Assembly (NCBI GenBank): GCA_016178505.1
Contig: JACOTG010000048.1
Location: 5,110 to 69,109, forward strand
DNA from: Planctomycetota bacterium
Lineage (GTDB): Bacteria > Planctomycetota > JACOTG01
DNA: 64,000 nucleotides
Reading direction: 5' to 3'
A model generated the notes under the pieces. That model saw only the letters and a list, made by a program, of their open reading frames with translations. It was not told where the DNA came from and made no database searches. The first letter of the stretch is position 1. Each line of letters opens with the position of its first letter. This document shows positions 1 through 55,799 of the stretch, piece by piece. The position numbers and the translations under genes were made by a program.

Positions 1-418
1 CGGGCGCGAGCTGATGCTTCGCTATCGAAAGCAGTTCGAGGCGGCGCTGGACGCCATCGAAGCGCGCACTCCCGATCCCAAGCGTCGTCTCAAGGCGTTC
101 ATCGAACTCTTCGTTGCCACGCTGCGGATGGGCGATCGCATGTGTCTTTGCGGAATGCTCGCCGTCGAGTACGGGACGCTTCCCCGTGACGTTCAGCTCC
201 AAGTGAAGGAGTTCTTCGGCGAATGCGAGCGATGGCTGGCTCGAACGCTCGACGAGGGCAGGCGATCGAAAGTGCTCTCGTTCGACGGCGAGCCGAAGGA
301 CGCCGCGCGCGTGCTGTTCGCCACGCTCGAAGGAGCCATGATGTCGGCGCGCGCGTTCGGCGACGAGTCGCGCCTCGCGTCGGCAGGCCAATGGATGTTG
401 AAGGCGGTTTCGAAGTGA
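1..418 (+). CDS. TetR/AcrR-family transcriptional regulator, C-terminal ligand-binding domain only (5' end and HTH lie upstream of the window)
   Basis: ORF 14..418 translates to an all-helical TetR_C-like sequence (KRRLKAFIELFVATL...). No HTH is present, so the gene must begin before position 1. The annotated Met is probably internal. Confidence 0.5.
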   Translation, partial: GRELMLRYRKQFEAALDAIEARTPDPKRRLKAFIELFVATLRMGDRMCLCGMLAVEYGTLPRDVQLQVKEFFGECERWLARTLDEGRRSKVLSFDGEPKDAARVLFATLEGAMMSARAFGDESRLASAGQWMLKAVSK

Positions 419-2345: not shown

Positions 2346-2452
2346 TGAGAGTGGCGAATCGCGTCGCAGAGATTCGGCGACGGACCATTCTCGTGAAGGG
2401 ATCGGCGAGTCTTGAAAGGGACGTCGTTCTTGCAGCGTCGACTTCATTCCGT

Positions 2453-4984
2453 CTATTCTTCCCGCAAGAGCCGGAGAGTCTTCACATCAATCTCAGAAAT
2501 CCGTGGACCAAACGTTTCACGAAACGCCACTGCTGTGCGCGTGAGCCACTCGATGGCCCCCTGCCAGGTTCCGCGTTCGATGAGCCGGACCTCGTGCGTG
2601 AGCTTGATGCGCTTGTTCCGCTTGTCAGGCCTGGCGTCCCATTCGAGCGGAGCACCGATCCCATCGTCGATCGCCTCGCGCGCCTTCGCCAGTTCCTTGA
2701 ACACCAGACTAGCATCGTCCCCGGTCAGCATCATCGTGACGCATACGCGGTGCTCCGGGACGACTGCGGTCAGTGACAGGTACATGTTGGTTCGACCCAG
2801 GGCGATGTCGTAATAGTGCCGCGGGTGTGGAGATCGGAGGTTGGGAAACTTGCCTGTCGCGGCCAACGCCGGCTTCATCTGAGTCCAGAAGTCGAGCTGC
2901 AACTGCTTCAGTTGAGTCGGTGGATCAGCACTACCAGCCTCATTTTCGTCACCAACGCGTCCGATAGAATTGTATACGACCTGCCATTCGTCAGGGCCGA
3001 TGCCTGCAATCTGCGCCGCCTGCACGCACAGCCTGTGAATCGATGAGGCTGAAAGGTTTGTCTCTACATAGGCACCGTTGTTGAGGCGCCTAGGGCGGCT
3101 TGACCTGCGGAAGCTACCGGCGTCGAAGCTCACCATCCGCGGCAGATCGGCGACGACCCGCTTGAACTCCTCGTCGCCAATGGCGGCGATGCTCTCCAGC
3201 ATCACGATCGCTACTTCAGCCCAGGACTGAACGGGGGTCGAGTGCTCGCGGACCCACACCAGGTTGGGCACCGTTCCCTTCACGGACACCTGATCTGCTT
3301 CGGCGGACTCGACTGACTCCTGTTCGGGACCGAAGTACGGCCAGAGTAACACTGCGAGTTCGGTCAGAACTTCAGATCGGCGCTCGATCTCTTTCGCCGT
3401 CCAACGATCAACCTTCTCGAAGTAGCGATTCAACTCAATGTGACTCACTGCGAAAAGCTGCTTCTTTTCAATGAACGGCGAGTTGCTCAGCTCTGGGTTG
3501 TAACTGGTGAGGGTGAGGTTCCCGAGGGTATGGAGCAGGGCCTCGTGGTCTTCGTCCCAGGTTTCACCGAGCTCCGCCTTCCAGCCATCAGTGAGTGACT
3601 GCGGCATGACGTGCTCGATGGATAGGCTCGACGTTTCGACCCGCTCCTTGTGTCCCAGTCTCCCCTCCAGGCACTCTAGGATTAGGCGGGTCTTCTCTCG
3701 CCGCTCACCACTGCCATACAGCCGCGCGGCCGCGAGACGGTCGCGAAACGTGTCGTCGCGCGGACAGTTCTTGCTGGCAAGAATGCGTTTGATGGCCTCG
3801 ACGAAGTCGGATTCCGACCCAGCCTGATCGTAAAGCGGCGCGAAGATCTTGTTGAGGCCATGCGTGGGGACGCCGACAACGAACCGGCGAACGATGAAAT
3901 TCTCGATCACATCGAGGATAGCGAGTAGTTCGGGTTCGGCGCGACTGCCGCTGGCCATATCAGCGTATACGCGCAGCACGAACGGGTACGCGACCGTCAC
4001 TTCGAGCCTATTCAGGCGCAACAACCGTTCGCGGAGTGCGTTGCTCGGCGCCTTCTCAGGGCGCAACAGCACCTCATAGAACTCCGAGAAGCGATTGAGC
4101 CGTGTGAGGTGCTCGAGTGGCGACTTGGTGGAGTCATCGTCGACGATCGCCTTCAGCCCCGAGTAGACGTCGGACTCTCGCACGACCGTGCCGGACTGAG
4201 TGAGATAGTGGCGTACGAAGTCAGTCAACGCCTCTTCTCCGAGACGCTTCTGCATCGGCCGCCACAGATCCAAGTAAACGCGGTCGTGCTCTGGCTCGGG
4301 GAGGCGCATGAAGAAGTAATTCCGAATGAGGTCGGCCTGCGACAACGGGCGCCCCTTGCCGTTAAGGCTCTCGAAGATCCGGTGAGGATTGTCCTTCTCG
4401 TCAAGGATGATGCTTACGAGTGTCAACCTTGAAGTAATCGCTCGTTGAAGCGCTTCGAGGTTCGATTGATCCCCACGTCGGAGCTTAGTCGCGAAGAATC
4501 CGTAGGCGGCGTTGATGCCAGTCTTTGATGGCCGCCGCTCACCCCCTTCGATGAGGCGAATGAACGTGTCGCGATCGCTATCTGCCGGATCGTCGCCTTG
4601 CGTTGGCAGCAGCTTGTAGCGGTCATGGCCTTCTTCGTGTCGATTCGTGATGAGGTCCTGAATCTTGTCGGCGAGTTTGCTTTCTCCCACGTTACGCGCC
4701 TGATCCCGCACGAGTATGAGCAGGATGATCAACGTCGTCAGGCGCTGCTGCCCATCGATGAGAAGGCGCTTTTCAACACCTTCGGGCACCGAGCGGGCCG
4801 GTGCGGACACGATCGGCCCGAGGAAGTGGGGCTTGGAGTGTGGATCGTCCAGGAGCTCTTCAAGATCATGCCAGAGTGTCTTCCACTGTTCCTCGCGCCA
4901 CGAATAGGGACGTTGGAAATGGGGGATGAGGAATTGCTTGCTGCCCTCGAGGACGCGCTGAATCTTCGCTTCGCCGGCTTCCAT
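2453..4984 (-). CDS. GmrSD-like type IV restriction-family protein (N-terminal DUF262/ParB-like NTPase and DUF1524 His-Me nuclease) with a roughly 250-aa extra C-terminal region
   Basis: 843 aa. FQRPYSW and IDGQQRLTT are DUF262 motifs. The downstream SIEHVMPQSL region is DUF1524-like. The gene lies in a segment of visibly lower GC than its flanks. Confidence 0.75.
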   Translation of the reverse strand: MEAGEAKIQRVLEGSKQFLIPHFQRPYSWREEQWKTLWHDLEELLDDPHSKPHFLGPIVSAPARSVPEGVEKRLLIDGQQRLTTLIILLILVRDQARNVGESKLADKIQDLITNRHEEGHDRYKLLPTQGDDPADSDRDTFIRLIEGGERRPSKTGINAAYGFFATKLRRGDQSNLEALQRAITSRLTLVSIILDEKDNPHRIFESLNGKGRPLSQADLIRNYFFMRLPEPEHDRVYLDLWRPMQKRLGEEALTDFVRHYLTQSGTVVRESDVYSGLKAIVDDDSTKSPLEHLTRLNRFSEFYEVLLRPEKAPSNALRERLLRLNRLEVTVAYPFVLRVYADMASGSRAEPELLAILDVIENFIVRRFVVGVPTHGLNKIFAPLYDQAGSESDFVEAIKRILASKNCPRDDTFRDRLAAARLYGSGERREKTRLILECLEGRLGHKERVETSSLSIEHVMPQSLTDGWKAELGETWDEDHEALLHTLGNLTLTSYNPELSNSPFIEKKQLFAVSHIELNRYFEKVDRWTAKEIERRSEVLTELAVLLWPYFGPEQESVESAEADQVSVKGTVPNLVWVREHSTPVQSWAEVAIVMLESIAAIGDEEFKRVVADLPRMVSFDAGSFRRSSRPRRLNNGAYVETNLSASSIHRLCVQAAQIAGIGPDEWQVVYNSIGRVGDENEAGSADPPTQLKQLQLDFWTQMKPALAATGKFPNLRSPHPRHYYDIALGRTNMYLSLTAVVPEHRVCVTMMLTGDDASLVFKELAKAREAIDDGIGAPLEWDARPDKRNKRIKLTHEVRLIERGTWQGAIEWLTRTAVAFRETFGPRISEIDVKTLRLLREE

Positions 4985-5270
4985 GTCGTGCCGATGTTAT
5001 CCGCACCGGGTCGCGACCGCTACGGTGAGCAAGCCGAATCGGCGCCCGTTCCCGACGTCGAAGGCAATGTGCGCGTCGCCTACTGTGTTCGAGGCGTCGG
5101 GACTACTGGAGTCGCCGATCTGCAGCCGAATCGATAAGCCGCTCGCGCGGCTGGCCCCTGGCTGAGACCCACATCTCTCGACTCACTCGCTGGAGGCGGG
5201 GCACGGCGCCCTCGTCTGTCACGCGAATCGGTCGGCATCTCGAGCGCGACGGTGACTGCGATTGCGAAAT

Positions 5271-7673
5271 CTAGCGCGGGCGCTTTCTGAGGTGCAGGGC
5301 GTTGTCGTATCGGTACAAGATCTCGAGGGTCAACACGTTGATCGCCGTCTGGTAGAGCGGTCCGGTCCCGTGGGACCAGCGGTCGCGGACGAGCCAGCCG
5401 CCTTTCGAGCACGACGTCTCCGATTTGTCTTGAAGGCTGAGAATCGACTCGGACACCGCCTTGTTCCAAGGTCCCCAGTACTTGCCCGTCTTGCGTGGAC
5501 CGTCAGGACCATCGAACAGGTAAAGTGCGAGGCTGCCGAAGTACCAGTAGTAGTAGTCGATCGAAAACTTGTCCTTGGAGATCAACGGAAGGTCCTCGAG
5601 GAGCTGCTTGGCAGCGAGATCGAGGAAGGGATCATTCGGGTTGTGCTCGATGAACGTGCGAATGCACACGCCGAGCGCCGACATCGTCGCGACGTGATAG
5701 TCGTACTGGTCGCCTGGACCGCCGATCGTTCCGCCCGCTCCTTCCGGAGCTAGATAACCAACCAAGCCGTTGCCGTTCTGCGGGGTCACCCATTTCACGA
5801 AGTCGAGAGCACCGTCGAACGCGCTTTGTGGAACCTCGAAGTCCGCGAGGACGGCCGACTTCAGGGCCATGATCACCCAGCACGTCACGGACGTGTCCGC
5901 TTCGTGAAGGAGCTTCTCGTAGGCCGCCGCTTCCCTGGGGTCATTGACGTCGCGCGGCTTCGTCTTCTCGAGGTCGAACCGGGGTCGGTACCGCCAGCCC
6001 CACAGGGCTCCGGAGCCGTTCGGGTTCTGGAGCTGCGCGTCGACGAGAAATCGGACGGCGCGTTGTGCGGAGTCTCGCCAAAGTGGATTTCGCGTCAGTC
6101 CGTAGGCTTCGCACATTGCGAGGGTGGCGATCGCTTCGTTGTACATCATGAAATTGCGCTGATCCGAGAAGGAGCCGTCCTCGTTCTGATGTTGTGTCAG
6201 CCACGAGAGTCCTTGCTTCACGGTGTCCCGAATCGTGAGGCGCTTTTTCGTGACGGGATCGACGATCACTTGTCGAGACTCGTCACTGTAGCCAGCACCG
6301 AGGAATGCGAGCAGGGCCAGCCCTGTGAGGCCCTCGACAGCCTCGGGCGCGAATACTTCGTCCTTCGCAACGCACGTGGATTCGGGGAGGCAGCGCTCGC
6401 TCAGTTTGTCGGCGCTCCAGGAGCCGTTAGGGTTCTGATGACGCATGAGCCAGCGCAGCCCCTCGAGGACGGCCTCTTCAGTTCCGCGGGTCTGCGTCGC
6501 CGGCGACTTAGCGGCGACTGGCGCGGGTCCAATCGGCTGCGCATCGTCGGTCGTCGCGCACGCCATGGACAAAGGCGTCACCATCGCGAGGGCGCCGACA
6601 AAAGCGAGCGCCGCGACGCCGCGCGACGGTTCGCGCCGGCTCCGCGTCGCATCGAGGATTGCTTGGAGCCGGGCTTCGATCTTCGTCGAGCGCGCCATCG
6701 CGATTCCGGCCGCGGTCGACAGCGCGTGCCAGCGCGCACCCGATGCGACGGTGAGGAGATGCTCGGCGTAGTCCGTCGGCTCCGATCCGGAGCGCAAGAC
6801 CTGGTCGTCCGCGGCGCGCTCGCGCTCGACGCAGAGTCGCCGCGTCGCGATCCAGACGAGCGGATGGAACCAGAAGATCGCGGATGCTGCGCGCGCGAGC
6901 AGCAGCGTCACGCCGTCTCGGCGCCGGACGTGCGCCAGCTCGTGCAGGATCACTGTGCGCAGGCGATCCGTCGGCCACGATTCCGCGTCGTGCGGCAGGA
7001 GCACGGTGGCCGTCCTTCCGCCGAACGCCATCGGCATCGCGCCACATGGTCCCTCGATGAGTCGAACGCGTGAAGAGATGCCCAGCTCGCGTCGAATCTC
7101 GTCGAAGACCGCGTGGCAGCCGCCGTCGGTCACGCGGCGCGAATGCTCGACGAGCCAGCACATCCGCGCCCATCCGGCGAGAACCCAGGCGATCACGGCG
7201 AACGCACCGAGTGCCCAAGCGATGAGGAGCCACGCGCGAGGATCGACGAGCAAAACGTTCGGCGTTGCGCTTTCCGCGCGCGCGCCCGCAGGGTGAACGG
7301 CGGCCGCGCGGTCGATCCCGTCGAAACGCTTGGCCGAGTTCCCCGCGATCTCATGGGTCGACGCGTCGTGATGCGCGGCGGGGACGCCGGTGCGCGAACG
7401 ATCGGGCTCGACGGATGAAGCGGCGTTTCCGAGCGATGGCGGCAGCACGCGCCACAAGGGCAGCGTTGCGGAAAGCAGCGGCAGAAGAAGCACTCCGCCG
7501 ATCGCCGCCGTCCACACGAGATGGCGCGTCGCGGCCGACGCGCGTCGCAATGCAAGCGTCGTCACGCTCGCCAGCGCGAGGAGAACCGCGCCCTTCCACG
7601 CGGAGTCGACGAGAACCGGCAGCCACCTCTCGACGAGAAACCCGATCGACGACTGAATCCCCCAGTCCGTCAT
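5271..7673 (-). CDS. BlaR1/MecR1-family M56 peptidase (membrane signal transducer) fused to C-terminal prenyltransferase/squalene-cyclase-like alpha/alpha-toroid repeats
   Basis: The six-frame ORF 5271..8126 overlaps blaI. A real start at ATG 7673 (MTDWGIQSS) lies 2 nt after the blaI stop. Transmembrane helices, an HELAHVRRRD HExxH motif, then the repeats GLRWLMRHQNPNGSWS / GLSWLTQHQNEDGSFS / VRFLVDAQ. Confidence 0.75.
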   Translation of the reverse strand: MTDWGIQSSIGFLVERWLPVLVDSAWKGAVLLALASVTTLALRRASAATRHLVWTAAIGGVLLLPLLSATLPLWRVLPPSLGNAASSVEPDRSRTGVPAAHHDASTHEIAGNSAKRFDGIDRAAAVHPAGARAESATPNVLLVDPRAWLLIAWALGAFAVIAWVLAGWARMCWLVEHSRRVTDGGCHAVFDEIRRELGISSRVRLIEGPCGAMPMAFGGRTATVLLPHDAESWPTDRLRTVILHELAHVRRRDGVTLLLARAASAIFWFHPLVWIATRRLCVERERAADDQVLRSGSEPTDYAEHLLTVASGARWHALSTAAGIAMARSTKIEARLQAILDATRSRREPSRGVAALAFVGALAMVTPLSMACATTDDAQPIGPAPVAAKSPATQTRGTEEAVLEGLRWLMRHQNPNGSWSADKLSERCLPESTCVAKDEVFAPEAVEGLTGLALLAFLGAGYSDESRQVIVDPVTKKRLTIRDTVKQGLSWLTQHQNEDGSFSDQRNFMMYNEAIATLAMCEAYGLTRNPLWRDSAQRAVRFLVDAQLQNPNGSGALWGWRYRPRFDLEKTKPRDVNDPREAAAYEKLLHEADTSVTCWVIMALKSAVLADFEVPQSAFDGALDFVKWVTPQNGNGLVGYLAPEGAGGTIGGPGDQYDYHVATMSALGVCIRTFIEHNPNDPFLDLAAKQLLEDLPLISKDKFSIDYYYWYFGSLALYLFDGPDGPRKTGKYWGPWNKAVSESILSLQDKSETSCSKGGWLVRDRWSHGTGPLYQTAINVLTLEILYRYDNALHLRKRPR

Positions 7674-7675: not shown

Positions 7676-8065
7676 TCAGCGTCCTTTCTTTCGGGCGTCG
7701 CGAATCAAGTCGGCGAGTCGCGCCAGCTCGGTGGCGTCGAGGTCGGTCGCGGCATCCGTGAGGTGCGACGCGAGAGCCTTCTCGAGAGAACCGGCGAAGA
7801 ACGTCTGCAGCACGCGGCGGAACGCGGATCGGGCGGCCAGCGCTCGCGGCCGGCTCGGCCGATAGAGATAGGTCTTGCCCACCTCGCGATGCTTGAGGTG
7901 TCCCTTGTGCTCGAGAATTCGGAGAAGCGTGCGCACCGCGGTCTTCGTGGGAGCGTCGGGCAGGCCTTCGCGGACCTGCGCGGCGGACGCCTCGCCGCGC
8001 ACGTAGACGACGTCCATGATCTGTCGCTCGCGACGGCTCAAGTGCTCGAGGTGATGGCCGGCCAC
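7676..8065 (-). CDS. BlaI/MecI/CopY-family transcriptional repressor
   Basis: 129 aa. LSRRERQIMDVVYVRGEASAAQVRE is a winged-helix penicillinase-repressor motif. GTG start with RBS GAGGAGG. Lies immediately upstream of the M56 gene. Confidence 0.8.
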   Translation of the reverse strand: MAGHHLEHLSRRERQIMDVVYVRGEASAAQVREGLPDAPTKTAVRTLLRILEHKGHLKHREVGKTYLYRPSRPRALAARSAFRRVLQTFFAGSLEKALASHLTDAATDLDATELARLADLIRDARKKGR

Positions 8066-13898: not shown

Positions 13899-15146
13899 TC
13901 ACAGGAAGCTCAGCCAGGCCGCGCGACGCCGGCTCTTCACTCCCGCGAACCATCGGCAGGGAAAGTACAGCGCGGCGACGACGAGCGCGGTCACGAGGTA
14001 CACGACGGGAAGCGAGTACCCGTAGCCCGGCGGCGGTGGGCCCGCGGCCATCGGTTGGTTTGCCGTCAACCACGGCACGATCACGCCGAAGTGGGCGAGC
14101 GACAGCGCGATCGCGATCCCATGGATGAGCGGGATGTGCAGCACGTAGTAGAAGAACGGGACGCGCCCGATCGTCGCGACGGCGTCGACGATTCGGCCCC
14201 GCGCGCGCTCGATCAGCGGGAGCAGGGCGATCGTCGGCCCGAGCGTCATCAACAAGTACAGCAGCGACGCCGGGTACTTCTGCGTGTTCACGAACGCCAG
14301 CACGGTGAGCATCGGGGACGCCTGGGGTGTCCACGGCCTCGGATCGCCGTAGAGGTTGATTTCGCGCAGGACGAGGAACGCCGCGATCGAAGCCAGGCCG
14401 ATGCCGAGACTGAGTCGTCGCCGTCGCGCCGCGTCGAGCGTCAGGATGGAGCCGAACGCGTAGCCCAGCGCCATCACGCCGACCCACGGAACGATCGAGA
14501 ACAGAATCGCGAGCGTCGGCCCGCCGCCGATCGAGACCGGGCCGCCGTAGTAGAGGATTTGCCAAAACCATCGCCACTCGCTCGTTTGCAGCTTCGACAG
14601 GATCGTGGGCGCGAAGCCATTGAGCACGTTGTGGCCGGCGACGAGAGCGAGGCCGATCAGCGCAATCGCGCCCATCGGCAGCCACACGAGCGCGGCGAGT
14701 CCGACGAGACACCACCCGATCATCCAGATCACGCCGCCGAGCAAGTAGTGCGAGAAGTCGAGGTTGAACGTCCAGCCGAGGCGCATCACGGTCAACTCGA
14801 TGACGACGAGCCACAGGCCGCGTGCGAGGAGGAAGCGCGACAGCGCCGCGCGACTCTCGGTGCGACGGCCGTGGAGAAACGTACCCGTGCCGGCGAGGAA
14901 GACGAACGCGGGCGCGCAGAAGTGCGTCACCCATCGCGTGAGGAAGATCGCGACGCTCGCATTCGCGAGATTCGTCGGGTCGCCGCGAAAGTCGGAGAGG
15001 AACCAGCGCACGTGATCGAGCGCCATCAGCACCATGACGGCGCCGCGGACCACGTCGAGCGATGCGATGCGTTGTCGAGGCGTCGATGGCGCGGTCGCGA
15101 CGAACCCGCCCGACGCGACGTCGTTGCTGGCAGTCACCGTTGGCAT
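13899..15146 (-). CDS. DUF1624 / HGSNAT-like membrane acyltransferase-family protein
   Basis: The true start (MPTVTAS, ATG 15146, RBS GGAG) is internal to the 751-aa six-frame ORF. RIASLDVVRGAVMVLMALDH motif followed by a polytopic membrane protein. Confidence 0.55.
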   Translation of the reverse strand: MPTVTASNDVASGGFVATAPSTPRQRIASLDVVRGAVMVLMALDHVRWFLSDFRGDPTNLANASVAIFLTRWVTHFCAPAFVFLAGTGTFLHGRRTESRAALSRFLLARGLWLVVIELTVMRLGWTFNLDFSHYLLGGVIWMIGWCLVGLAALVWLPMGAIALIGLALVAGHNVLNGFAPTILSKLQTSEWRWFWQILYYGGPVSIGGGPTLAILFSIVPWVGVMALGYAFGSILTLDAARRRRLSLGIGLASIAAFLVLREINLYGDPRPWTPQASPMLTVLAFVNTQKYPASLLYLLMTLGPTIALLPLIERARGRIVDAVATIGRVPFFYYVLHIPLIHGIAIALSLAHFGVIVPWLTANQPMAAGPPPPGYGYSLPVVYLVTALVVAALYFPCRWFAGVKSRRRAAWLSFL

Positions 15147-15392
15147 CGTCAGGACTCCGAGTTCCGTAGGGACGCTTCGTTCGCCAGTGCGCGATCGGGA
15201 TACGATCGGGGACACGCTACGTGTCGAGATCCGCCGACGCTTTCGAAATCTTGCTCGTTGTGCCGGCACCGCGTGTCGACCCGGGAGTTCGCGATCCGCG
15301 TCTGCCTCACGAATCCAATGGACTTCGAGGATCCTTGCCAAGACGCTCACGTATCGAGAGCGCCGTGATCTCCTGAGGAGCGAGGACGTCGC

Positions 15393-16193
15393 ATGAGCCA
15401 AGCGCCGAAGTTGTCGTTGATCTTCCCGACGTTCGTCGTGCCCGACGTGCGCGCGACGGTCGCGTACTATCGCGATGCGCTCGGCTTCCGACCGTGCACC
15501 GAGGCGGGGACCCCGCCGAACCTGTTCGCGATCGTCGAGAGCGCGCCCGGACAGGGTTTTCACTTCAAGCATTCGGCGAGCGCGATCGGCCGAAAGAATC
15601 GCGCGGACGGCGGCGACCAGCTCGACGCCTACGTTCGAATCGGCCGCGGCGAGGACGTCGACCGCCTGTCCGCGGCGCTGACGAAGGGTGGCGCGGCTCG
15701 CATCGCGGCGCCGATCGACCGACCGTGGAAGATGCGCGAGCTGGAGCTCGTGGACCCGAACGGCTTCGCCCTTTGCTTCGCCGGCGATCTCGCGGGCGAG
15801 GCCACGCCGGGAACGATCGTCGTGTCCCCGCAGTTCGTCGTGCGCGACGTCGCAAAGACCGCGGCGTGGTATCAGGACGTGCTCGGGTTCCGAACGCTGG
15901 GGCAATGGGGCGAGCCGCCCGAGTACGCAATCGTTGCGCGCGACGACGTGCGCGTTCATCTCGGCCGCGCCGCCGAAGGCGCACGCATTCGCAAGAATCG
16001 CGACGCCGCCGGGATCTGGGACGCGTACGTCGAGTGTCGCGGGATGGACGCGCTTCACGACGCTTTCCGCGGACGCGGCGCGACGATCGTGCGCGGACCG
16101 CAGAACGCGGAGTACGACATGCGAGAACTCGTCGTTCGCACGCCGGACGGCCACGACCTCTGCTTCGGCGAGCCCGTCATCGCGAGCCGCTGA
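15393..16193 (+). CDS. tandem VOC (glyoxalase/bleomycin-resistance/dioxygenase-fold) domain protein
   Basis: Two copies of the F(V)VPDV..YYRDxLGF VOC module. Confidence 0.7.
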   Translation: MSQAPKLSLIFPTFVVPDVRATVAYYRDALGFRPCTEAGTPPNLFAIVESAPGQGFHFKHSASAIGRKNRADGGDQLDAYVRIGRGEDVDRLSAALTKGGAARIAAPIDRPWKMRELELVDPNGFALCFAGDLAGEATPGTIVVSPQFVVRDVAKTAAWYQDVLGFRTLGQWGEPPEYAIVARDDVRVHLGRAAEGARIRKNRDAAGIWDAYVECRGMDALHDAFRGRGATIVRGPQNAEYDMRELVVRTPDGHDLCFGEPVIASR

Positions 16194-20050: not shown

Positions 20051-22243
20051 GTGACCCTCACCCGAAGGCGCATGGCGTCGGCGATTCTGGCCGGACTCGT
20101 CTTACTGGGTACGGGCATGTTGATTTGGCGCATGATGCGCTCGGAAACGCCTGGGCCATCAAATGGCGCGACTCCTGCTCTGAGTGCGACGCGGACTGAG
20201 ACGCGATCTTCGACGACTACTGGGACTGAACGCGAACTCTCGCGATCGAGTGTCGCAGAACTCCAACGTTCTCCGTCGACGGCGAATCGCTTGGGCGCCT
20301 TGCGGGGTCGGGTGATTGGGCGCGCCGGAGAGCCGGTTTCGAGCGCAACGGTCGAGGTGCGGAAAAACTCGGCGAGCGACTCGTCCATATTGCGGCCAGA
20401 CGTGTCCGCGCCGCCCCTACGAAGTGTGGCGACGGATCGAAATGGAGAATTCAGCTTCGACCTTCCGGCTGGACGGTCGTTCGATCTTCGTGTGATGGCT
20501 GAGGGCTTTGCGCCGATCGTCCGGACCGACCGTTACGCGGGAGAGAACGTCCTCGTCGAAGTCGGACGCGGGGGAACGATCCGCGGAAACGTGAGCCGAT
20601 CGACCGACGGCACTCCGGTCGCGAATGCAATCGTTCGGCTGTCCGGCGGTGGCGCTGACATCGCGAGTCGCAGCGAGACGGACCCAGGAGGCCGCTACGA
20701 GATCGAAGTGGGCGATCCCGGAACGTACTGGTTGAGTGTCTATCCATCGGCGGATGGTGCAGTCGAATCACGAAGGATCGATCTCGAGGAAGGCGAGACT
20801 GTGCGCCAAGACATCGAGGTCGATCCCGGTGTCACCTTCTCGGGACGCGTGACCGATGCCCGAAGCCATGAGCCGATCATCGGGGCTCACGTGACGGATC
20901 GCGGTATCGGCGAGAGATTCGCGGAGACGAACTCGGACGGATACTTCATGCTCGACGGAATCAACCCAGCTCCTCAACGAGGGATTTTCATTCGCGCGAG
21001 CGCCCCGGATCATGCGACCGCGGAGCTCCATGTCGATTCGGCCACTGCGGCGGCGGCACCGCTCGAGTTCGCGCTCCAACGTGGCGGCGACGCACGCGGG
21101 GTCGTCATCGATGCGATGGGCAGACCCGCCTCGGACGTCGAGGTTTCGATACTCGTCATCGACCCTCGCTACATGATGCCGCGTCAAACCACACCGGCGA
21201 TTCTCAGCCGTGCCGACGGCGCCTTCGAGTTTCGAGAGCTGCGTCCCGATGCACGTCATCTCCTCATTGCACGGAAGGATGGTTTCGCGACCCGGACAGC
21301 CGTACTCGATTCGTTTGGCGAACATGCCGGCGTGGCCGATCTTGGCGTCTTTGCGCTCGATCCCCCCGCATCGATTGTCGGACGCGTCACGCGCGAAACG
21401 GGCGAGCCGGTTTCCGACGTGTTCGTGAAGATCGAGTCGTGCGACCGAAGCCGGGGATCGTCGGAAACGCCTCTCGATGCGATCGCGCTTTCGAGCTCGC
21501 GCTCACGGCGCACGGACACGACGGGCCGTTTCTGCATCACGGATTTGGCGGCAGGGCGATATCGGGTGAGTGCCCAGATTCAGGGGCGGCGCAACGACGC
21601 GAAGCGCGACATCGAATTGAAGGTCGGACAAGCGGTCGACGGAATCGATCTCGTCCTCGAGCAAGGACCCTCGATCAGCGGAAGGGTCGTCGATTCGTTT
21701 GGAAAGGGCGTTTCGTTCGTACGCATCGAAGCGTTCGCCGATTCCCTCCCGAAGTCGGCCAAGACGCGGCTCTCGACCGAATCCGACGGTTCCTTCCACA
21801 TCGAGGGGCTCGCCGAAGGAACGTACACCGTCACTGCGCAACGTGTCGAACTCAGCGGTAATCGAGGTGAGTCTCCATTCGGTGTAGGGATTGCCCGTGG
21901 AGTCGCCACCGGATCCGAGGCGCTTCAAATCGAACTTCGCCGTGCGCGACCGACGTCAGGCATTCTCCTCGATCACGAAGATCAGCCCGTCGCCGGCCTC
22001 ACGATTCTCGTATCCGATCCGATAGATCGATTCAGTGATGTCACGGTCACGGATGCCGAGGGTCGATTTTCGATCGTCATGCCGGAACCGGCGCAGTTGA
22101 ACTTCGACGTCGCGACCACGAGCGGATTTACACTCGACGTCTCGGGCCCCGGTACGGTCGAGGCTGCGGTGGCGGAGCGTGCCGTCACAGGAATCCAGTC
22201 GGGAGTGAGCGACTTGGTTTTTCGTCTAGTGCCTAAACGCTAG
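20051..22243 (+). CDS. membrane-anchored protein with tandem carboxypeptidase-regulatory-like (CarbopepD_reg) domains
   Basis: N-terminal transmembrane helix, then repeated G(R)V.D..G.PV beta-sandwich modules (GRVIGRAGEPVSSATV, ISGRVVDSFGKGVSFVRI, and others). Confidence 0.6.
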   Translation: MTLTRRRMASAILAGLVLLGTGMLIWRMMRSETPGPSNGATPALSATRTETRSSTTTGTERELSRSSVAELQRSPSTANRLGALRGRVIGRAGEPVSSATVEVRKNSASDSSILRPDVSAPPLRSVATDRNGEFSFDLPAGRSFDLRVMAEGFAPIVRTDRYAGENVLVEVGRGGTIRGNVSRSTDGTPVANAIVRLSGGGADIASRSETDPGGRYEIEVGDPGTYWLSVYPSADGAVESRRIDLEEGETVRQDIEVDPGVTFSGRVTDARSHEPIIGAHVTDRGIGERFAETNSDGYFMLDGINPAPQRGIFIRASAPDHATAELHVDSATAAAAPLEFALQRGGDARGVVIDAMGRPASDVEVSILVIDPRYMMPRQTTPAILSRADGAFEFRELRPDARHLLIARKDGFATRTAVLDSFGEHAGVADLGVFALDPPASIVGRVTRETGEPVSDVFVKIESCDRSRGSSETPLDAIALSSSRSRRTDTTGRFCITDLAAGRYRVSAQIQGRRNDAKRDIELKVGQAVDGIDLVLEQGPSISGRVVDSFGKGVSFVRIEAFADSLPKSAKTRLSTESDGSFHIEGLAEGTYTVTAQRVELSGNRGESPFGVGIARGVATGSEALQIELRRARPTSGILLDHEDQPVAGLTILVSDPIDRFSDVTVTDAEGRFSIVMPEPAQLNFDVATTSGFTLDVSGPGTVEAAVAERAVTGIQSGVSDLVFRLVPKR

Positions 22244-22427: not shown

Positions 22428-24302
22428 TCAGAAACTGTTGCCGGTGTTCCGGCTCGTGTTCGAAGACGAGCCGTAGTGGAAGCGGATGATCGCCGGCGGA
22501 TGGCGTCGCATGAGTTCGAGCTGCTCCGGCGTGAGCACGTGGTGGAACTCGCGCTCCATGCGCGCTTGAAGTACGAAGAAGTCCTCGTAGAGCCGCGCTT
22601 GTTCTGTGGGGCTGAGCGCCCGCGGGTTGGCGCCGTACTGTCCGTAGTCGCGCAGGAGTCGCTCGGCCTCGGTCGTGTAGCTTGCGGCGACGGACCGCAC
22701 CGCGCCCTGCTGGCTCTCGTCGAACGAGTAGGCCCAGTCCCATTGTTGGTAGACGTTTTCGGCGTACTTCCCACTCGCGACGTCGTCGAGCATCCCGATG
22801 TCGCCGATCGATTCGTCGCCTCGCATCAGTCGCCCGCTCACGTTCTGGATTGCGTCCCATTGCGCGCGCTGAGAATCGGTGAGCATCCCGTTCACGGAGT
22901 TCGTGATGTCGGAGATCAACTGCATCCGCGCGCGGTACAGCTCGACCGGGAGCGCCGTCGACGGATCGAGCTCCGACAGCCGGCCGGCGAGGAGAGATCG
23001 CGTCGTCTTGTCCAGCTCGGCGAGCTGACTCTCGGTGAGACCGAGGGACTTGCTGAACATGGCGTGGACGTAGTCGGGGAGAATCTTCGGATCGAAGAAA
23101 GGAACGGGCGACGCGGTCTTCACTTGCGCGACGAGCTTCATGTACTCGCTCAGCATGGCGGCCATCTTGGCTTGTTGCTCGGGAGTGAGCTTGTTCTCGT
23201 CCTTCATCGCGATCGCGAGGAGATCGACGTTGTTGGCGAGTAGCTCGGCGAACTTCGTCCAATCGATGGCATCGGGACCGACGAGCTTCGCTTTTCCGTC
23301 GCCGGCCTTCACCGCGGAGTTCGGTGAGGGCGCGAGTTCCGCGCTCGACGCGAGACGAGCGCGATCGGCCGACGCGAGCGCGTCCTGCGCGGTGCGCGCT
23401 TCGGCTTCCTTCTTGTGCAGCGCGTCGATGGTGCGCGCGTAGTCGGCCTTCAGTTTCTCGAACTCGGCCTTGCTGACGCTCGCAGCATCCGAGTGGGTCG
23501 CGTTCTTCTCGAGGGACGGGGCCGCGCCGTCGGCTCGGAGAATCGTACGGCCGGCCCACAGCCCCGCGCCGAGCGACACGATGCCGAGAATCAAAGCGCC
23601 GCCGATGATCTGCTTCGTCATGAGGATTCCTCCTAGGGTCAAACCGGTGCTGATCGTGGCCGTCGACGTCGCGTTCGCGGCGATCGTCATCAGCGATGCC
23701 GAGAGCTTCGCGGGTACGTGAAGCGCCGCCGACGAGCGCATGAGGCTCTCGACGTTCGGGACGACCGAGAGATAGCCCGCCGTCGCAAGTCCTCGCTTGA
23801 GCAGTTTCAGAGCTTTCTGAATTCGCGTCTGGGCGGTCGTGCGCGAGATCGCCAACGCCTCCGCGACCTCGAACTGCGACAGGCCTTGGTAGTAGTGCAA
23901 GAGGATCAGCGATCGCGACGCTTCCGGAAGTTTCGCGATCTCCCCCTCCACGACGGCCTCGAGTTCGCGATGCTCCAGCCGCTCTTTTTCCTCGAACTCG
24001 TCGCGCTTCATGGGCGCCTCGCTCTCCCTCTGCCGTCGCAGCTTGGAGTCTCGGATGAAGTTCCGGAGCACGCTCGTGGCCACTCGGTAGATCCACGGCT
24101 TCAGCGCGCGACGCGAGTCGTAGCGGTGAAAGTTGCGCAGCACCGTGATGAAGATTTCTTGGGTTGCGTCCGCGGCGTCGGCCTCGTTGCCGAGCATGCG
24201 GTACGCGAGGTTGTAGAGCGGACGCTGCCAGTCGAGGACGACTTGCGCGAGCGCCTCGCCGTTCCGGGATGGTTCGCTCGGTTCGAGCACGGCCGTTTCC
24301 AT
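22428..24302 (-). CDS. ECF (sigma-70 family) sigma factor fused to a transmembrane helix and a roughly 370-aa extracytoplasmic domain
   Basis: Region 2 (DATQEIFITVLRNFHRYD...KPWIYRVATSV) and region 4 (ILLHYYQGLSQFEVAEALAISRTTAQTRIQKAL). The frame continues through a transmembrane helix (IIGGALILGIVSLGAGLWAG) into a long Ala/Glu-rich domain. No stop codon at the junction, checked on the DNA. Confidence 0.7.
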   Translation of the reverse strand: METAVLEPSEPSRNGEALAQVVLDWQRPLYNLAYRMLGNEADAADATQEIFITVLRNFHRYDSRRALKPWIYRVATSVLRNFIRDSKLRRQRESEAPMKRDEFEEKERLEHRELEAVVEGEIAKLPEASRSLILLHYYQGLSQFEVAEALAISRTTAQTRIQKALKLLKRGLATAGYLSVVPNVESLMRSSAALHVPAKLSASLMTIAANATSTATISTGLTLGGILMTKQIIGGALILGIVSLGAGLWAGRTILRADGAAPSLEKNATHSDAASVSKAEFEKLKADYARTIDALHKKEAEARTAQDALASADRARLASSAELAPSPNSAVKAGDGKAKLVGPDAIDWTKFAELLANNVDLLAIAMKDENKLTPEQQAKMAAMLSEYMKLVAQVKTASPVPFFDPKILPDYVHAMFSKSLGLTESQLAELDKTTRSLLAGRLSELDPSTALPVELYRARMQLISDITNSVNGMLTDSQRAQWDAIQNVSGRLMRGDESIGDIGMLDDVASGKYAENVYQQWDWAYSFDESQQGAVRSVAASYTTEAERLLRDYGQYGANPRALSPTEQARLYEDFFVLQARMEREFHHVLTPEQLELMRRHPPAIIRFHYGSSSNTSRNTGNSF

Positions 24303-26067: not shown

Positions 26068-29000
26068 CTAGCGTGGAGTGCGCGTCGGCAGCGTGACGCG
26101 CACCTCGTGGTCGCGAGGCCCGACGATCTCGACGGGGATGTCGATGTCGGGATACTGGAGCACCGTGATGTGGAGCCTGTAGCTTCCGACAGGAAGCGCG
26201 TTCCTCAATATCGTGCGACCTCGGAAGAGAGAGCCCGCCCACTGAGAGCGCGACGAGCCGGCTTCGAAGATCTGCACGTTGCTCATCAGCGAATTCTGGG
26301 ACGCATCCAATAGCTGCTGCTCAAAGGCCACTTCACGTGTTGCAAACCGTTCGTCGTCGACGACGAGAACGATGCGGCCCGCCGGCTTGATGGGAAACGT
26401 CCGATCGATTCGGTCGCCGTCGGTGACGGTGAAGCGAGCGCCGGCGACTTGGAAGCTCCCGCGCGAATCTTCGCGAGCGTTCAGCTCGAGGACGTACTCG
26501 CCGGCCGGAAGGTGCATGAATTCGAATCGCCCGCGGGCGTCCGTGTGCGCGCTGCCTCGCGACCGGCGAGTCACGGCGTCGAGCGCTTCCACCTCGATGT
26601 CGGAGAGATCGACGACGTCGCCTGCGTCGAGCCTTCCGACGAGAGTTGCCGGCGGCGACAGCTCGATGCGAATCCCCGTGACGTCCTCGCCCGCACGAAC
26701 GGTCAACGGCCGCTTCGTCACCTCGTGCCCCGTCGATTCGGTGATTTCCATCGTGTAGTCGCCGGGCAGGACGTTCTCGAATTCGAAGTGCCACGCCATG
26801 GTGCGCGGGATCAAGGACCGGCCGTTGGCATGCTGCATCCACATCGAGTATCGCGTGACGCGCTTTCCATCGCGATCGAACACTGCGCCTTCGACGCGCT
26901 GGCCGGCGACGTGGCCGCCGGGAGGCGCGGACAGTTGGAGTTGGACGGGCTCGTCGCCGGCCGTGATGACCGACGCCTGCAGCCGGTACGGATTCACGAA
27001 GTTCCACGCTCGCACGCGGTAGGGGCCTTCCGGCAGATCCTCGAAGCGGAACCGGCCGGCTTCGTTCGTTTCTCGTGTCCCGAGGATTCCCGGGTCGAAG
27101 GGATTGGCCGTTCGATCGAGCGCGGTGTCGGCGTCGGCGCGCACCACGCGAACCTCTGCGCGCGCGGGCCGTCCGTCGGAGTCGACGACTCGTCCTTCGA
27201 CGACGTGCGCGGCTTGGAGCGTGACGCCGAGCGCGACGCCTTCGTCCGGATAGCAATCCAGCGTGACGCTGCTCTTCGCGAAACCGGGCGCTTCGATCTC
27301 CAGCATTCGCGGAAAATCAGTGGGACGGAAGCAGCGATCGAGACGGGCCATCCCTTTTTCGTCCGTTCGATCGCCCGGGTACGTGAGGAGGTATTGGACG
27401 AGCGCGCCGAACACCGGAGACCCACGATCGTCGGCGACGTGGATCTCGAAGCGGCTCGATCGATGAACGAGGCGAATCGTCACGTCCGCAGCATCCGGCG
27501 AATCGGCGACCTCGATCCCGCCTGACGTTCCGTCGTCGGTTCCGCTCCACACCCAGAAGGCCCCGCCGGTGTGAAAACGCGGGATCGCCGGAAACTCGAA
27601 ATGACCGTTCGCGTCGGCCGAGGTCTCCGCGCTCTGTTCGACTTGTCGAGTGAGCGGCGGGAGGTGAGCGCCGACCTCGATTCCGAGAAGCGAGTGAAGG
27701 TCGTAGCTCACGCCCGCTCCGGCGACGGGCCGATCTTCATCGTCGACGACCACGCCGCGCACGACGCGCGTTCGAACGAGACGCACTTCTTCGACGGGCG
27801 ACGACGACGTGTTCCAGGCGAGGCCGAACCGGCCGGACGCCCGAGCGACGATGCACAGCGGCTCCTCTCGAAAGGGCGCGCCGAGGACGACTTCGCCGTC
27901 CTCGTTCGTCGTCGCCTCGCCGAGACTCACGGCTCCGACGTATCCCGATTCGCGACCCGTGCCGACGCTCACCGTGCGTTCGCGTCCCGACCAAGCGGCG
28001 ACGTTCGCGTCCTTCACGGGGAGTTCGGTTTCCGCATCGAGAACGCGGACGCGCAATCCCTCTCCCGCGACGAGGTCGATCTCACGAGGATGCTCCCGAG
28101 TCGACGCGCCGGCGCGGAACCGGTCGTCCATGTCCAGCTTCAACGGTTGGTATCCGTCGCGCGAAATCCGAAGCTCGGTCGCGTCCCAGTATCTGCCGTT
28201 CCCCGGATCAGGAGTGGAGAAGCGGCCCTGCGAATCCGATTGCGTAAGCCCGCGCGAGACGACTCCGCCTCGCAGCACGAACGTCTCGGCGGATGCGCCG
28301 GCGAGCGGTTCGCCCGTGTCGCTGTCCCAGATGATGAAATACATCGTGCGCGCCGCCTCGAGTCGCAGCTCGACGTCGCGCGGTCTCGAGGCGACCACGA
28401 TGCGCGAGTCTTGTCGGTAGCCGTCGGCGTCGGCGACGACTCGCCGCACTCGCTCGCTGCCGGGGACCCGAATCTCGAACTCGCCTTCTGCGCCGCTCAA
28501 TGTCGCGGGCTTGCCGTCGAGCGTTCCCATCGAATCCGCCGAGCTGATGCGGAGACGAGCGCCGGCGATGGGTCGTCCGTCTTCGTCGACGACGCGCCCG
28601 TCGATGCGCCATGCATTCGGATCGACGGAAGGGACCGAGGACGTCGCCATCGCGTCGGGCGACTCCGGCGCGGAGGCGTTCAGGGGTAGAACGGAAGCCG
28701 TCGTCGACGCGGCGCCCGTCACCGCGGCGATGGTCGTCGCGCGCTCGTCGCGGCTCCCGGCGAAGCGCCACAGCGCCAAGACGGCGAGCAGCAGCAACGC
28801 CGCGATCCACACAACCTTCGCCTTCATCGCCATCACGCCTCCGACCACTGCGCCCACGCCCGTTCGCTTCGACTCGAGCCCGACGAGCGGCAAGAGCGCG
28901 AGCCGCCATTCGCGCGCGTCGTCGCCATGTCGCCGGAGCAACTCGACTCTCAGCATCGCGAGCCCGCGCTTCACTCGCGTGCGCACGGTCTCGACCGGCG

Positions 29001-29454
29001 CGCCGACGCGCTCGGCTATCTCTCGCGGCGGCAGGTCCTCGAAGTAGCGAAGCACGACCGCGGTGCGGTACGGCTCATCGAGGCTCATGACCGCAGTCAG
29101 CACACGGCTTTGCTCCGCGATCCGCGCGATGACGCCGTCCGTCGAAGGCTGTGCCTCTGGGCGAGCGGCGGCTTTCTCGCGCTGGCTGCGGTGCTTGTCG
29201 CTGCGGACGAACCGCCGCGCGACGTTCCGGGCCACGCCGCGGATCCACGCTCGCGAGCTTGCTTTCCGCGAATGCGGCTCGCGCAGCGCGACGAGCATCG
29301 TTTCCTGAACGACGTCGTCGGCGACGGTCTCGTCGAAAACGAGGCTTCTCGCCAGCCGTCGCACGCCATCGACGTGCGCGAGCAGAAAAGTCGGATCGAT
29401 CCGCGAAGCGTCGTCGCTCATGTCGTTCACGGAGAAGTGCCAGCGGCTCGGCAA
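26068..29454 (-). CDS. ECF sigma factor fused to a transmembrane helix and a large extracytoplasmic array of carboxypeptidase-regulatory-like domains
   Basis: N-terminal sigma regions 2 and 4 (ADDVVQETMLVAL...; REIAERVGAPVETVRTRVKRGLAMLR). Transmembrane helix (VVWIAALLLLAVLALW). More than six CarbopepD_reg-like repeats (IDGRVVDEDGRPIAGARLRI, VEGRVVDSDGRPARAEVRVV, and others). 1128 aa. Confidence 0.7.
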   Translation of the reverse strand: MPSRWHFSVNDMSDDASRIDPTFLLAHVDGVRRLARSLVFDETVADDVVQETMLVALREPHSRKASSRAWIRGVARNVARRFVRSDKHRSQREKAAARPEAQPSTDGVIARIAEQSRVLTAVMSLDEPYRTAVVLRYFEDLPPREIAERVGAPVETVRTRVKRGLAMLRVELLRRHGDDAREWRLALLPLVGLESKRTGVGAVVGGVMAMKAKVVWIAALLLLAVLALWRFAGSRDERATTIAAVTGAASTTASVLPLNASAPESPDAMATSSVPSVDPNAWRIDGRVVDEDGRPIAGARLRISSADSMGTLDGKPATLSGAEGEFEIRVPGSERVRRVVADADGYRQDSRIVVASRPRDVELRLEAARTMYFIIWDSDTGEPLAGASAETFVLRGGVVSRGLTQSDSQGRFSTPDPGNGRYWDATELRISRDGYQPLKLDMDDRFRAGASTREHPREIDLVAGEGLRVRVLDAETELPVKDANVAAWSGRERTVSVGTGRESGYVGAVSLGEATTNEDGEVVLGAPFREEPLCIVARASGRFGLAWNTSSSPVEEVRLVRTRVVRGVVVDDEDRPVAGAGVSYDLHSLLGIEVGAHLPPLTRQVEQSAETSADANGHFEFPAIPRFHTGGAFWVWSGTDDGTSGGIEVADSPDAADVTIRLVHRSSRFEIHVADDRGSPVFGALVQYLLTYPGDRTDEKGMARLDRCFRPTDFPRMLEIEAPGFAKSSVTLDCYPDEGVALGVTLQAAHVVEGRVVDSDGRPARAEVRVVRADADTALDRTANPFDPGILGTRETNEAGRFRFEDLPEGPYRVRAWNFVNPYRLQASVITAGDEPVQLQLSAPPGGHVAGQRVEGAVFDRDGKRVTRYSMWMQHANGRSLIPRTMAWHFEFENVLPGDYTMEITESTGHEVTKRPLTVRAGEDVTGIRIELSPPATLVGRLDAGDVVDLSDIEVEALDAVTRRSRGSAHTDARGRFEFMHLPAGEYVLELNAREDSRGSFQVAGARFTVTDGDRIDRTFPIKPAGRIVLVVDDERFATREVAFEQQLLDASQNSLMSNVQIFEAGSSRSQWAGSLFRGRTILRNALPVGSYRLHITVLQYPDIDIPVEIVGPRDHEVRVTLPTRTPR

Positions 29455-48109: not shown

Positions 48110-48688
48110 TCAGCGGATGTTCCGTGCACGCGAGATGTAAGAATTGCCGTCCGACTTTGGTCGAGAGAATTTTTTTCGAAGCGGGTCATTCGGCGTGTGA
48201 GTCGTCGCTCGAGCGCCGTCGATGAAACCGCGCAGCGCTGAAATCAATCGATCGGACGCCTGAGGTGCGAGGGCGCCGGAAGCGGTGAGCGTCGATAGTT
48301 CGTCGAGACGCGCATCGAGCTCGCGCTCGTCGAGCGCCACGGCAACCCATCCGAACTCGCGGAAGATTCGCGCCGTGGCGACTTGGTGATCGTTGCGCGT
48401 TTCTTGCAGGTCTCCGCGCCGCGGCATCACGAGGATCGGCTTTCCCATTTCGCGCGCCGTGATGATCGATCCCATTCCAGCGTGAGCGACGATGGCGGTC
48501 GCCGACCGAACCTTCTCGCGGAACTCCGATTGATCGAGGAATTTCGTCCATGCGATGTGTCGAGGATGCCAGTCGGTCGGCCCAATCTGGGCGAACGCAT
48601 CGCTGCGACCCTGTCGCAACGCCCACTCGTCGACGCCGCGCACGAGGCGATCAAAGGGCATTTGAGCGCCAACCGTCACGAAGATCAC
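48110..48688 (-). CDS. Alg13-like glycosyltransferase catalytic subunit (Glyco_tran_28_C, PssE-like)
   Basis: VIFVTVGAQMPFDRLV...AHAGMGSIITAREMGKPILVMPRR. GTG start overlaps the upstream stop (GTGA). Confidence 0.6.
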   Translation of the reverse strand: MIFVTVGAQMPFDRLVRGVDEWALRQGRSDAFAQIGPTDWHPRHIAWTKFLDQSEFREKVRSATAIVAHAGMGSIITAREMGKPILVMPRRGDLQETRNDHQVATARIFREFGWVAVALDERELDARLDELSTLTASGALAPQASDRLISALRGFIDGARATTHTPNDPLRKKFSRPKSDGNSYISRARNIR

Positions 48689-49161
48689 AGCACCGATCCT
48701 TCGAAGGCCGGGCCCATCGGCCGGGCGAGATGAGGCCATTGCGTCAACCACAGATCGACGAAGCGTCCGACTCGCTCGCCCGATAGGGAGAGGCGCTCGA
48801 CGTTCGCGATGCTGTCGATCCATACCGTCCTCGCACCGATCGACTTGGCGAGCAGGATCCCGATGAACCCCGGCGCCGCGCCCGTCGAGACCACGACGTG
48901 CGGGCGCTCGCGCAACAGGATCCACGCGAGCTGGAGCGCCAGTCTTGCGAGGCCGATCTTGTTCCATCGGGTGGCGTCGCTCACCACGTAGAAAGGCGAT
49001 GAGCCGACGTCGCCGCGATAGGTCGGGTTCACCGTCACGAACGATGCGCGATGCCCAGCGAACGCGGGACGCAAGCGCATCAATTGCACCCAATGTCCGC
49101 CCCCGGAGGCGATGGCGAGAATCTTCTTCGGCTCCATGGATTGCGACTTGCCAGCAATCAC
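48685..49161 (-). CDS. Alg14-like glycosyltransferase membrane subunit (PssD-like)
   Basis: KILAIASGGGHWVQL...VVSTGAAPGF pattern of Alg14-family proteins. Precedes the Alg13-like gene. Confidence 0.6.
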   Translation of the reverse strand: MIAGKSQSMEPKKILAIASGGGHWVQLMRLRPAFAGHRASFVTVNPTYRGDVGSSPFYVVSDATRWNKIGLARLALQLAWILLRERPHVVVSTGAAPGFIGILLAKSIGARTVWIDSIANVERLSLSGERVGRFVDLWLTQWPHLARPMGPAFEGSVL

Positions 49162-49264
49162 AGTTCCAAAGACCTCGACTTCGGCCCAAGGATCGACTCG
49201 GGCAAGGCGTTTGCTCCGCGGAGTCGGCGTGCTTGGCCTATCCCAGGGAAGCTATGGGAATCCC

Positions 49265-49963: not shown

Positions 49964-50048
49964 GGCCTGGACAAGAGGCGAATCACGTGCGATCGGAACG
50001 ATCCGAGAGTCGAATGGAAGGCGAGGCGACGACCTCGCTCTGCGAGCC

Positions 50049-51095: not shown

Positions 51096-51123
51096 ACATC
51101 GTGTACGTGCAAGGAGAGCTCGA

Positions 51124-51873: not shown

Positions 51874-51880
51874 TTGCGCC

Positions 51881-55098: not shown

Positions 55099-55137
55099 GC
55101 GCCGCTTCCGCCCGCGCAGACTTCGTCGAGCGTGGAC

Positions 55138-55676: not shown

Positions 55677-55799
55677 GGGTCACGACCTCCGGGACCAATG
55701 GGAGCCGCAGAGATCGTCGACCGTCGCCGCGCGAAGTTGCAGGCGAAATCGGGACCCTCGCGCGAACATCTAGTGCCAATGCATCGACGGCGGCGACTC

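Follow-up and report, generated by a model that had tools for sequence, protein, structure and literature searches.

A solitary GmrSD-family gene with a DUF4268 tail in a Planctomycetota genome: a probable modification-dependent anti-phage nuclease

GmrSD-like genes are often embedded in type I restriction-modification (R-M), Hma and BREX loci, where they form a complementary arm against modified phages (bioRxiv 2024.01.29.577857, PMC11411939). ORF5 of the Salmonella Cerro 87 dpt/dnd cluster (PMC2978375), the source of the label 'Orf5', was later characterised as DndI, which is toxic without phosphorothioate marks (PMC11662687). DUF4268 was listed by Machnicka et al. in 2015 (PMC4619093) as an additional domain 'most often associated with DUF262 and DUF1524', and Jablonska et al. 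in 2017 (PMC5714182) predicted that it binds DNA. The DUF4268 nucleases MdgA and MdgB, which came from functional metagenomics, give E. coli protection against T4 but none against T4-GT7, and their authors proposed DUF4268 as the substrate-recognition element (bioRxiv 2025.02.28.640651). PDC-S11, since renamed Madara, consists of a NucS-like nuclease and a C-terminal sensor that its authors call distantly EVE-like; it restricts T4 with glucosylated hydroxymethylcytosine (ghmC) but not T4(C) (bioRxiv 2026.09.05.749240). Here we describe a gene that joins DUF262, DUF1524 and DUF4268 in one polypeptide. It lies on the minus strand at positions 2453..4984 of a stretch of 64,000 nucleotides (hereafter the window, 64 kb) from a Planctomycetota bacterium (GCA_016178505.1, contig JACOTG010000048.1).

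The gene is an open reading frame (ORF) of 843 aa that runs intact from ATG to stop, as read from the ORF list and its translation. It is an additional member of the known GmrSD (type IV restriction) class, and its architecture was catalogued in 2015. All three expected Pfam domains, DUF262, DUF1524 and DUF4268, were found in it, and the original prediction of an 843-aa GmrSD-like DUF262/DUF1524 gene was borne out by hidden Markov models (HMMs), motifs and predicted structure. A protein with 100% identity is deposited at NCBI as 'DUF4268 domain-containing protein [Planctomycetes bacterium]' from GCA_016200105.1, a Planctomycetes metagenome-assembled genome (MAG). In that genome the locus (L001, 22.5 kb) is 99.97% identical to the first 15 kb of the window. 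The nearest homolog of the 843-aa protein is 68% identical. More than 75 homologs align with the protein end to end, and more than 100 database proteins at 48-71% identity, many of them in Polyangia MAGs, carry the same three Pfam domains. NCBIfam has no model that matches it. With this gene a widespread class of predicted GmrSD-type defence nucleases gains a Planctomycetes member, which by itself goes little beyond annotation.

We favour the reading that this gene encodes a stand-alone, single-polypeptide, modification-dependent anti-phage endonuclease of the GmrSD family that is gated by nucleoside triphosphate (NTP), and we give this reading a probability of roughly 0.6. The catalytic motifs of the DUF262 NTPase and of the DUF1524 nuclease are all intact. 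At the N-terminus is a ParB-like NTPase domain of the GmrSD_N/DUF262 type (aa 9-225, positions 4310..4960; Pfam E 9.6e-36; this and all following parts of the gene are on the minus strand). Its QR motif (Q24-R25, 4910-4915), DGQQR motif (D77-R81, 4742-4756) and FESLN motif (FxxxN, F204-N208, 4361-4375) are invariant across 101 aligned homologs. An all-helical linker domain follows (aa 230-405, 3770..4297), which falls inside the full-length PADLOC models of Orf5 and HEC-06. In the AlphaFold (AF2) model, helices run throughout aa 230-419 with a predicted local distance difference test score (pLDDT) above 90. The third part is a His-Me finger nuclease of the GmrSD_C/DUF1524 type (aa 408-542, 3359..3763; Pfam E 1e-29). 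It carries the DUF1524 catalytic motif E457-H458 (3611-3616) together with N489 and N496 (3497-3523), N501 and H515/N519; the family-defining motif set was taken from PMC11411939. E457, H458, N489, N496 and N519 are invariant in the 101 homologs, and the AF2 model contains the beta-beta-alpha elements expected of DUF1524 (strands at 455-458 and 490-493, then a helix).

We then compared the protein with profile and structure collections. The GmrSD-like models in PADLOC are 543-600 positions long and match only aa 1-550, which leaves an excess of 250-290 aa; the original prediction of about 250 aa beyond typical GmrSD fusions was therefore accurate. The best PADLOC model is Orf5 (PDLC02693), which covers aa 1-550 at E 1e-183 and 610 bits. 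Matches to the HEC-06 HMMs span aa 3-550 (E 6e-77, 258 bits); one of these models, PDLC04157 (E 5.7e-77), aligns aa 8-549 with model positions 14-556 of 558. Because PDLC02693 scores far higher, the protein belongs to a sub-clade other than that of HEC-06. The type IV model mREase_IV gave a partial match in two stretches, the best of them at aa 172-550. The full-length AF2 model has a pLDDT of 89.6, and Foldseek placed it closest to DndI (9JFL, E 5.8e-17), followed by SspE (6JIV, 8.7e-10) and BrxU (7P9K, 2.9e-5).

The C-terminal extension of about 290 aa comprises two compact domains with a disordered linker between them (model of aa 545-843, pLDDT 89.3). The original prediction had described it as a region of unknown function and had suggested a search for DUF4268. 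The extension is real and DUF4268 is present in it, but the DUF4268 part was already known and the architecture had been catalogued. Between DUF1524 and DUF4268 is a domain of about 105 aa (aa 569-674, 2963..3280), hereafter the middle domain, which is compact in the model (pLDDT 92-98) and has a beta-beta-alpha-alpha...alpha-beta layout. A Pfam scan gave no match over aa 569-674, and a profile search of PDB sequences found no relative of the domain. It is also present in a sister group of GmrSD proteins of about 680 aa that lack DUF4268. An exhaustive phmmer search of 1.84 billion representative sequences returned only 146 matches at E <= 1e-3, the majority of them GmrSD proteins, whole or in fragments. 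The domain also sits C-terminally in proteins with an HSDR_N-type PD-(D/E)XK nuclease (P0213, P0261 and P0224, the last with two copies), and it is fused to Mrr_N (P0191), Hypoth_Ymh (P0174) and a KAP NTPase (P0253). The segment is thus a discrete, rare and mobile domain found on other restriction nucleases, for which Pfam has no model.

The middle domain is a putative DNA-binding or reader module. Since it is also fused to HSDR_N and Mrr_N restriction modules, a role in recognition is suggested, and the pairing of a nuclease with an accessory domain is typical of modification-dependent enzymes. Tandem middle domains occur behind an HSDR_N nuclease in P0224, behind a His-Me finger in P0263 and with no recognised partner in P0233. 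Such tandem copies are consistent with a modular DNA-recognition unit. Short proteins among the middle-domain matches were considered as new architectures and rejected, because 34 of 52 are truncated GmrSD ORFs.

The second compact domain is DUF4268 (aa 689-843, 2456..2920), with a Pfam match at aa 695-828 (E 2.4e-20) that covers model positions 1-139 of 140. The same region also aligns with the PDC-S11 models of PADLOC, over their C-terminal half (aa 687-831, E 1.7e-24, model positions 168-312 of 313). Since PDC-S11 matches the tail only and its nuclease differs, the present protein shares a domain with Madara but is not a member of that system. The predicted fold, with pLDDT above 90, has an alpha-beta-beta-beta-alpha-beta-beta-alpha layout, and the invariant residues are L, G and W. 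When this domain was searched with Foldseek against PDB and BFVD, nothing was returned at E <= 1e-3; the best matches were weak (E ~0.01, TM-score 0.4-0.57) and were to YbjN, AmyR and type III secretion system (T3SS) chaperone structures. A profile search of PDB sequences found no DUF4268 relative. The predicted fold therefore lends no support to the published EVE-like suggestion. We also considered a degenerate PD-(D/E)XK nuclease, as the topology begins alpha-beta-beta-beta-alpha-beta, and rejected it because the domain has no conserved acidic or lysine catalytic residues and no nuclease fold match.

By analogy with MdgA/MdgB and Madara, DUF4268 is probably a reader of modified DNA. A bolder proposal, which we regard as improbable, is that the two C-terminal domains form a tandem reader: the middle domain would be a new, rare family that recognises DNA or modified bases, and together with a YbjN/T3SS-chaperone-like DUF4268 it would give this clade a specificity unlike the sensing of hydroxymethylcytosine (hmC), ghmC or phosphorothioate. 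Either the middle domain or the DUF4268 fold could guide work on how type IV enzymes read modified DNA.

We examined the context of this gene here and in its relatives. In the window the gene stands by itself and follows a blaI-blaR1 pair that is unrelated to it. A Pfam scan of the larger ORFs in the 64-kb window brought up no hsd, dnd, ssp or DNA-methyltransferase gene, and none was found in the extra 7.5 kb of L001; tblastn with HsdM, HsdS and HsdR from homolog loci likewise found nothing in the window. Eight homologs were sampled on longer contigs, and with the 68% homolog these gave nine contexts. Five of the eight lie close to type I hsd genes, and four of these directly adjoin them; the arrangements include gene-hsdM-hsdS, hsdR-gene-hsdM-hsdS, gene-hsdM-hsdS-hsdR and hsdR-hsdM-hsdS-gene. 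A sixth comes after genes for a methyltransferase and a ResIII helicase, and the remaining two are solitary. This hsd embedding matches the embedding published for GmrSD-like genes. Full-length copies stand alone in this genome and in three others. Their existence speaks for autonomous function, and it indicates that the type I R-M genes that usually accompany the class can be absent. At one homolog locus (L085), a 567-aa DUF262-only protein (14080-15783, minus strand) is encoded next to a HipA-like kinase gene, about 4.6 kb from the GmrSD-DUF4268 gene; it may be another defence or toxin-antitoxin (TA) module.

The top-ranking PADLOC and Foldseek matches and the homolog contexts also bear on a different reading, in which the protein is a DndI/SspE-like 'self-mark-sensing' effector. 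Such an effector would attack unmodified DNA and would be restrained or switched by host marks (phosphorothioate or type I methylation) through a hydrophobic patch in DUF262, the C-terminal domains or both. Orf5 is the best PADLOC model, DndI and then SspE head the structural matches, and in the five hsd-associated homologs hsdM/hsdS run in the same direction as the gene. Where DndI has its phosphorothioate-sensing Y25 (Y30 in SspE), the present protein has F23 and the family consensus has Y. However, the aligned segment reads PHFQRPYSW here and PTYQRDYSW in DndI, and the P-x-Y-Q-R motif is generic to DUF262 rather than specific to phosphorothioate, so the alignment does not discriminate. No gene that would write such a mark was found in the window or in L001, and dnd and ssp genes are likewise missing from all nine homolog contexts. 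In the absence of phosphorothioate DndI becomes toxic, yet the present clade has solitary full-length members in at least four genomes. In published work, the GmrSD relative TgvAB, from a type I R-M locus, acts against hypermodified phages with no need of HsdR (PMC11411939). We consider a self-mark-sensing effector unlikely, and we retain a modification-dependent nuclease as the preferred reading.

Low GC content had been taken in the original prediction as a sign of a horizontally acquired island, with 58-60% GC set against about 70% in the flanks. The gene is indeed 59.2% GC (0.64/0.41/0.73 at the first, second and third codon positions, GC1/2/3) compared to 65.1% for the whole window. It is the lowest of all 2,532-bp windows in the 64 kb (mean 0.651, standard deviation (sd) 0.019), and the next independent stretch is at 0.615. 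The flanks, however, are lower than had been claimed: the immediate flanks are 60-66% GC and the neighbouring genes 63-68%, and about 70% is reached only at ~6.4-7.6 kb, in the 5' half of blaR1 and in blaI. When the protein was recoded with the codon usage of the 26 other window genes, the expected GC was 61.3%. Amino-acid composition thus accounts for about 3.7 of the 5.8 points by which the gene falls short, and codon choice for the other 2.1. With a codon-choice residual of -1.2 sd, the gene ranks third-lowest among the 27, and its GC3 stays inside the host range (0.726 vs 0.790 +/- 0.052, also -1.2 sd). GC2 is 0.41, compared to 0.50 +/- 0.04 in the other genes. In all seven family loci that we read, GC2 is 0.40-0.45 and the gene is lower in GC than its flanks. 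These data indicate that the GC dip is largely a family trait.

If the gene were a recent foreign arrival on a small genomic island, inserted between blaR1 and a putative TA pair, its composition and borders should set it apart. It is the lowest-GC segment of 2.5 kb and has the lowest codon-fit score among the 27 genes, its close homologs share no gene context, and other defence-like genes lie in the flanks (the putative TA pair, and NOV_C, AlbA_2 and HATPase_c_4 genes past the window edge). However, about two-thirds of the GC deficit reflects an amino-acid composition common to homologs in seven loci, and two other genes fit the host codons about as poorly. The tRNA scan found none within the window, the repeat scan found no direct repeats bracketing the gene, and there is no integrase among the neighbouring genes in the window and L001. 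Thus neither of the expected border signs, flanking repeats or tRNA, was present. No donor is identifiable, because the nearest homolog is only 68% identical. A search for an empty site, made with BlaR1 in species-representative genomes, found no orthologous locus; the best match was 43% identical over the N-terminal part only. As the supposed island is one gene long and its codon choice is not an outlier, the evidence for recent transfer is weak, and we think a recent island possible but doubtful. The gene context is fully different in every homolog examined, including the closest (68% identity, beside Ham1 and RNase PH), which suggests long-term mobility of the gene family.

The blaI/blaR1 neighbours had been correctly predicted. 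Directly upstream on the same strand are a blaR1-like M56 peptidase gene of 800 aa (5271-7673; Peptidase_M56, E 1e-28) and a blaI-like repressor gene (7676-8017; Penicillinase_R, E 2.9e-20). The long C-terminal part of the BlaR1-like protein has weak matches to squalene-hopene-cyclase and TED-type alpha/alpha-toroids, and not to a penicillin-binding sensor; the 3' third of blaR1 dips to ~58-62% GC. A spacer of 286 bp (4985..5270, minus strand) separates the blaR1 stop from the ATG of the nuclease gene and probably holds the gene's own promoter. A scan of the spacer gave neither a sigma-70-like promoter nor an intrinsic terminator, but it was limited to sigma-70-type consensus sequences and is not informative for Planctomycetes. 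An imperfect inverted repeat of 29 nt (4793-4821 / 4986-5014, 79% complementary, 164 nt apart) straddles the start codon and may be due to chance.

This position, on the same strand as blaR1 and with no promoter or terminator detected between the two, would suit a decayed remnant or a DNA-binding protein co-opted elsewhere, for example under BlaI/BlaR1 control. Given its limit, the promoter scan adds little to that case. The frame is full-length, the catalytic motifs are all intact and identical to the family consensus, and the predicted folds are of high confidence. In addition, a blaI-blaR1 neighbourhood occurs in none of the nine homolog contexts. Decay or co-option is therefore highly implausible, and an active GmrSD-family defence nuclease remains the reading we prefer.

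On its other side, the gene converges on a pair of plus-strand genes encoding 105 aa (1436-1753) and 196 aa (1755-2345), whose coding regions are 1 nt apart. This had been predicted to be an NTase-fold pair, a claim that found no HMM or PDB support. The 196-aa protein was negative with Pfam, NCBIfam, PADLOC and PDB phmmer and has only a minimal-nucleotidyltransferase-like motif seen by eye, SSLLGEIRSTKDVDFV, while the 105-aa protein has a sub-threshold match to the Rv0078B antitoxin (E 7e-4). The pair may be a TA system of the MenA/MenT type. Just past the left edge of the window, L001 (15402-18813) carries defence-like genes of the NOV_C (GC 57%), AlbA_2/Schlafen-like and HATPase_c_4/Fic-like_C types, and a truncated TetR gene (window 14-418) lies between them and the window interior. 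The GmrSD gene itself has no island boundaries, but the larger region around it may be a small variable or defence neighbourhood.

How might such a protein act? From Eco94GmrSD, BrxU, HEC-06, TgvAB, SspE and DndI, we infer that DUF262 would bind and hydrolyse NTP and gate the nuclease through a conformational or oligomeric switch, and that the His-Me finger would nick or cleave DNA. Following Madara/PDC-S11 and MdgA/MdgB, DUF4268 would recognise hypermodified phage DNA and direct or license cleavage, and the middle domain would probably contribute to recognition. The host's own unmodified DNA would be spared. In most relatives, the enzyme would serve as a complementary arm within a type I R-M operon, catching modified phages that escape R-M.

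Several points weigh against this scheme. In the cited preprints, the reader role of DUF4268 is itself a proposal. The fold search with DUF4268 gave no reader of the EVE, PUA, SRA or YTH type. The closest structure and the best PADLOC model are DndI/Orf5 and not a classical type IV enzyme, and DndI attacks unmodified DNA and is restrained by host phosphorothioate marks.

Two further groups of genes lie in the window. Two minus-strand genes (22428-24302 and 26068-29454) encode proteins with N-terminal regions 2 and 4 of sigma-70 of the extracytoplasmic function (ECF) type and very long C-terminal extensions, an unusual architecture for a sigma-factor fusion. In the 1128-aa fusion protein the extension is full of CarboxypepD_reg/transthyretin-like repeats, and a gene for a 730-aa CarboxypepD_reg repeat protein (20051-22243, plus strand) adjoins the sigma-fusion genes. 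A polysaccharide-biosynthesis cluster at 48685-61082, which is unrelated to the GmrSD gene, encodes an Alg14-like protein, two polysaccharide deacetylases, an asparagine synthase, an FrhB/FdhB-like protein and a Polysacc_synt flippase fused to hexapeptide repeats.

The protein can be placed among known systems by what it shares with each. With the catalogued GmrSD+DUF4268 class it has an identical domain order (DUF262, linker, DUF1524, DUF4268) and no architectural difference; the domain of ~105 aa between DUF1524 and DUF4268 is unnamed in the surveys of that class (PMC4619093, PMC5714182). DndI (PDB 9JFL) is the best structural match, with 623 aligned columns and a TM-score of 0.61 normalised by target length, but sequence identity is only 18%. 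Both proteins combine a DUF262 NTPase with a DUF1524 nickase or nuclease, whereas DndI is encoded with dndBCDE/FGH, depends on phosphorothioate and lacks the middle domain and DUF4268. The adjoining dndBCDE or sspABCD module of DndI and SspE was not found in the window, in L001 or in the nine homolog contexts.

HEC-06 (bioRxiv 2024.01.29.577857) and BrxU/HEC-05 (7P9K) each provide GmrSD-like defence with one protein, and their genes frequently lie inside Hma, BREX or type I R-M loci. Mutating the equivalent Q/R and E/H residues of HEC-06 abolishes defence (bioRxiv 2024.01.29.577857), and these essential residues are conserved in the present protein. In contrast, a DUF4268 tail is missing from HEC-06 and BrxU, and no other system surrounds the present gene. 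The structural match to BrxU, which carries an RLFDS nucleotide motif, is much weaker (E 2.9e-5). TgvAB includes a GmrSD-family enzyme with the same motif set, encoded between hsd genes like five of the eight homologs here, and mutation of its equivalent Q/R and E/H residues likewise abolishes defence (PMC11411939); it differs in being a two-protein system without DUF4268. The hsd embedding of RloF, TgvAB and HEC-type genes is absent in the window and present in five of the eight homologs. Madara and MdgA/MdgB have DUF4268 in common with the present protein, but their nuclease module is unrelated: that of Madara is a NucS-like PD-(D/E)XK nuclease, whereas the present protein combines a His-Me finger with a ParB-like NTPase.

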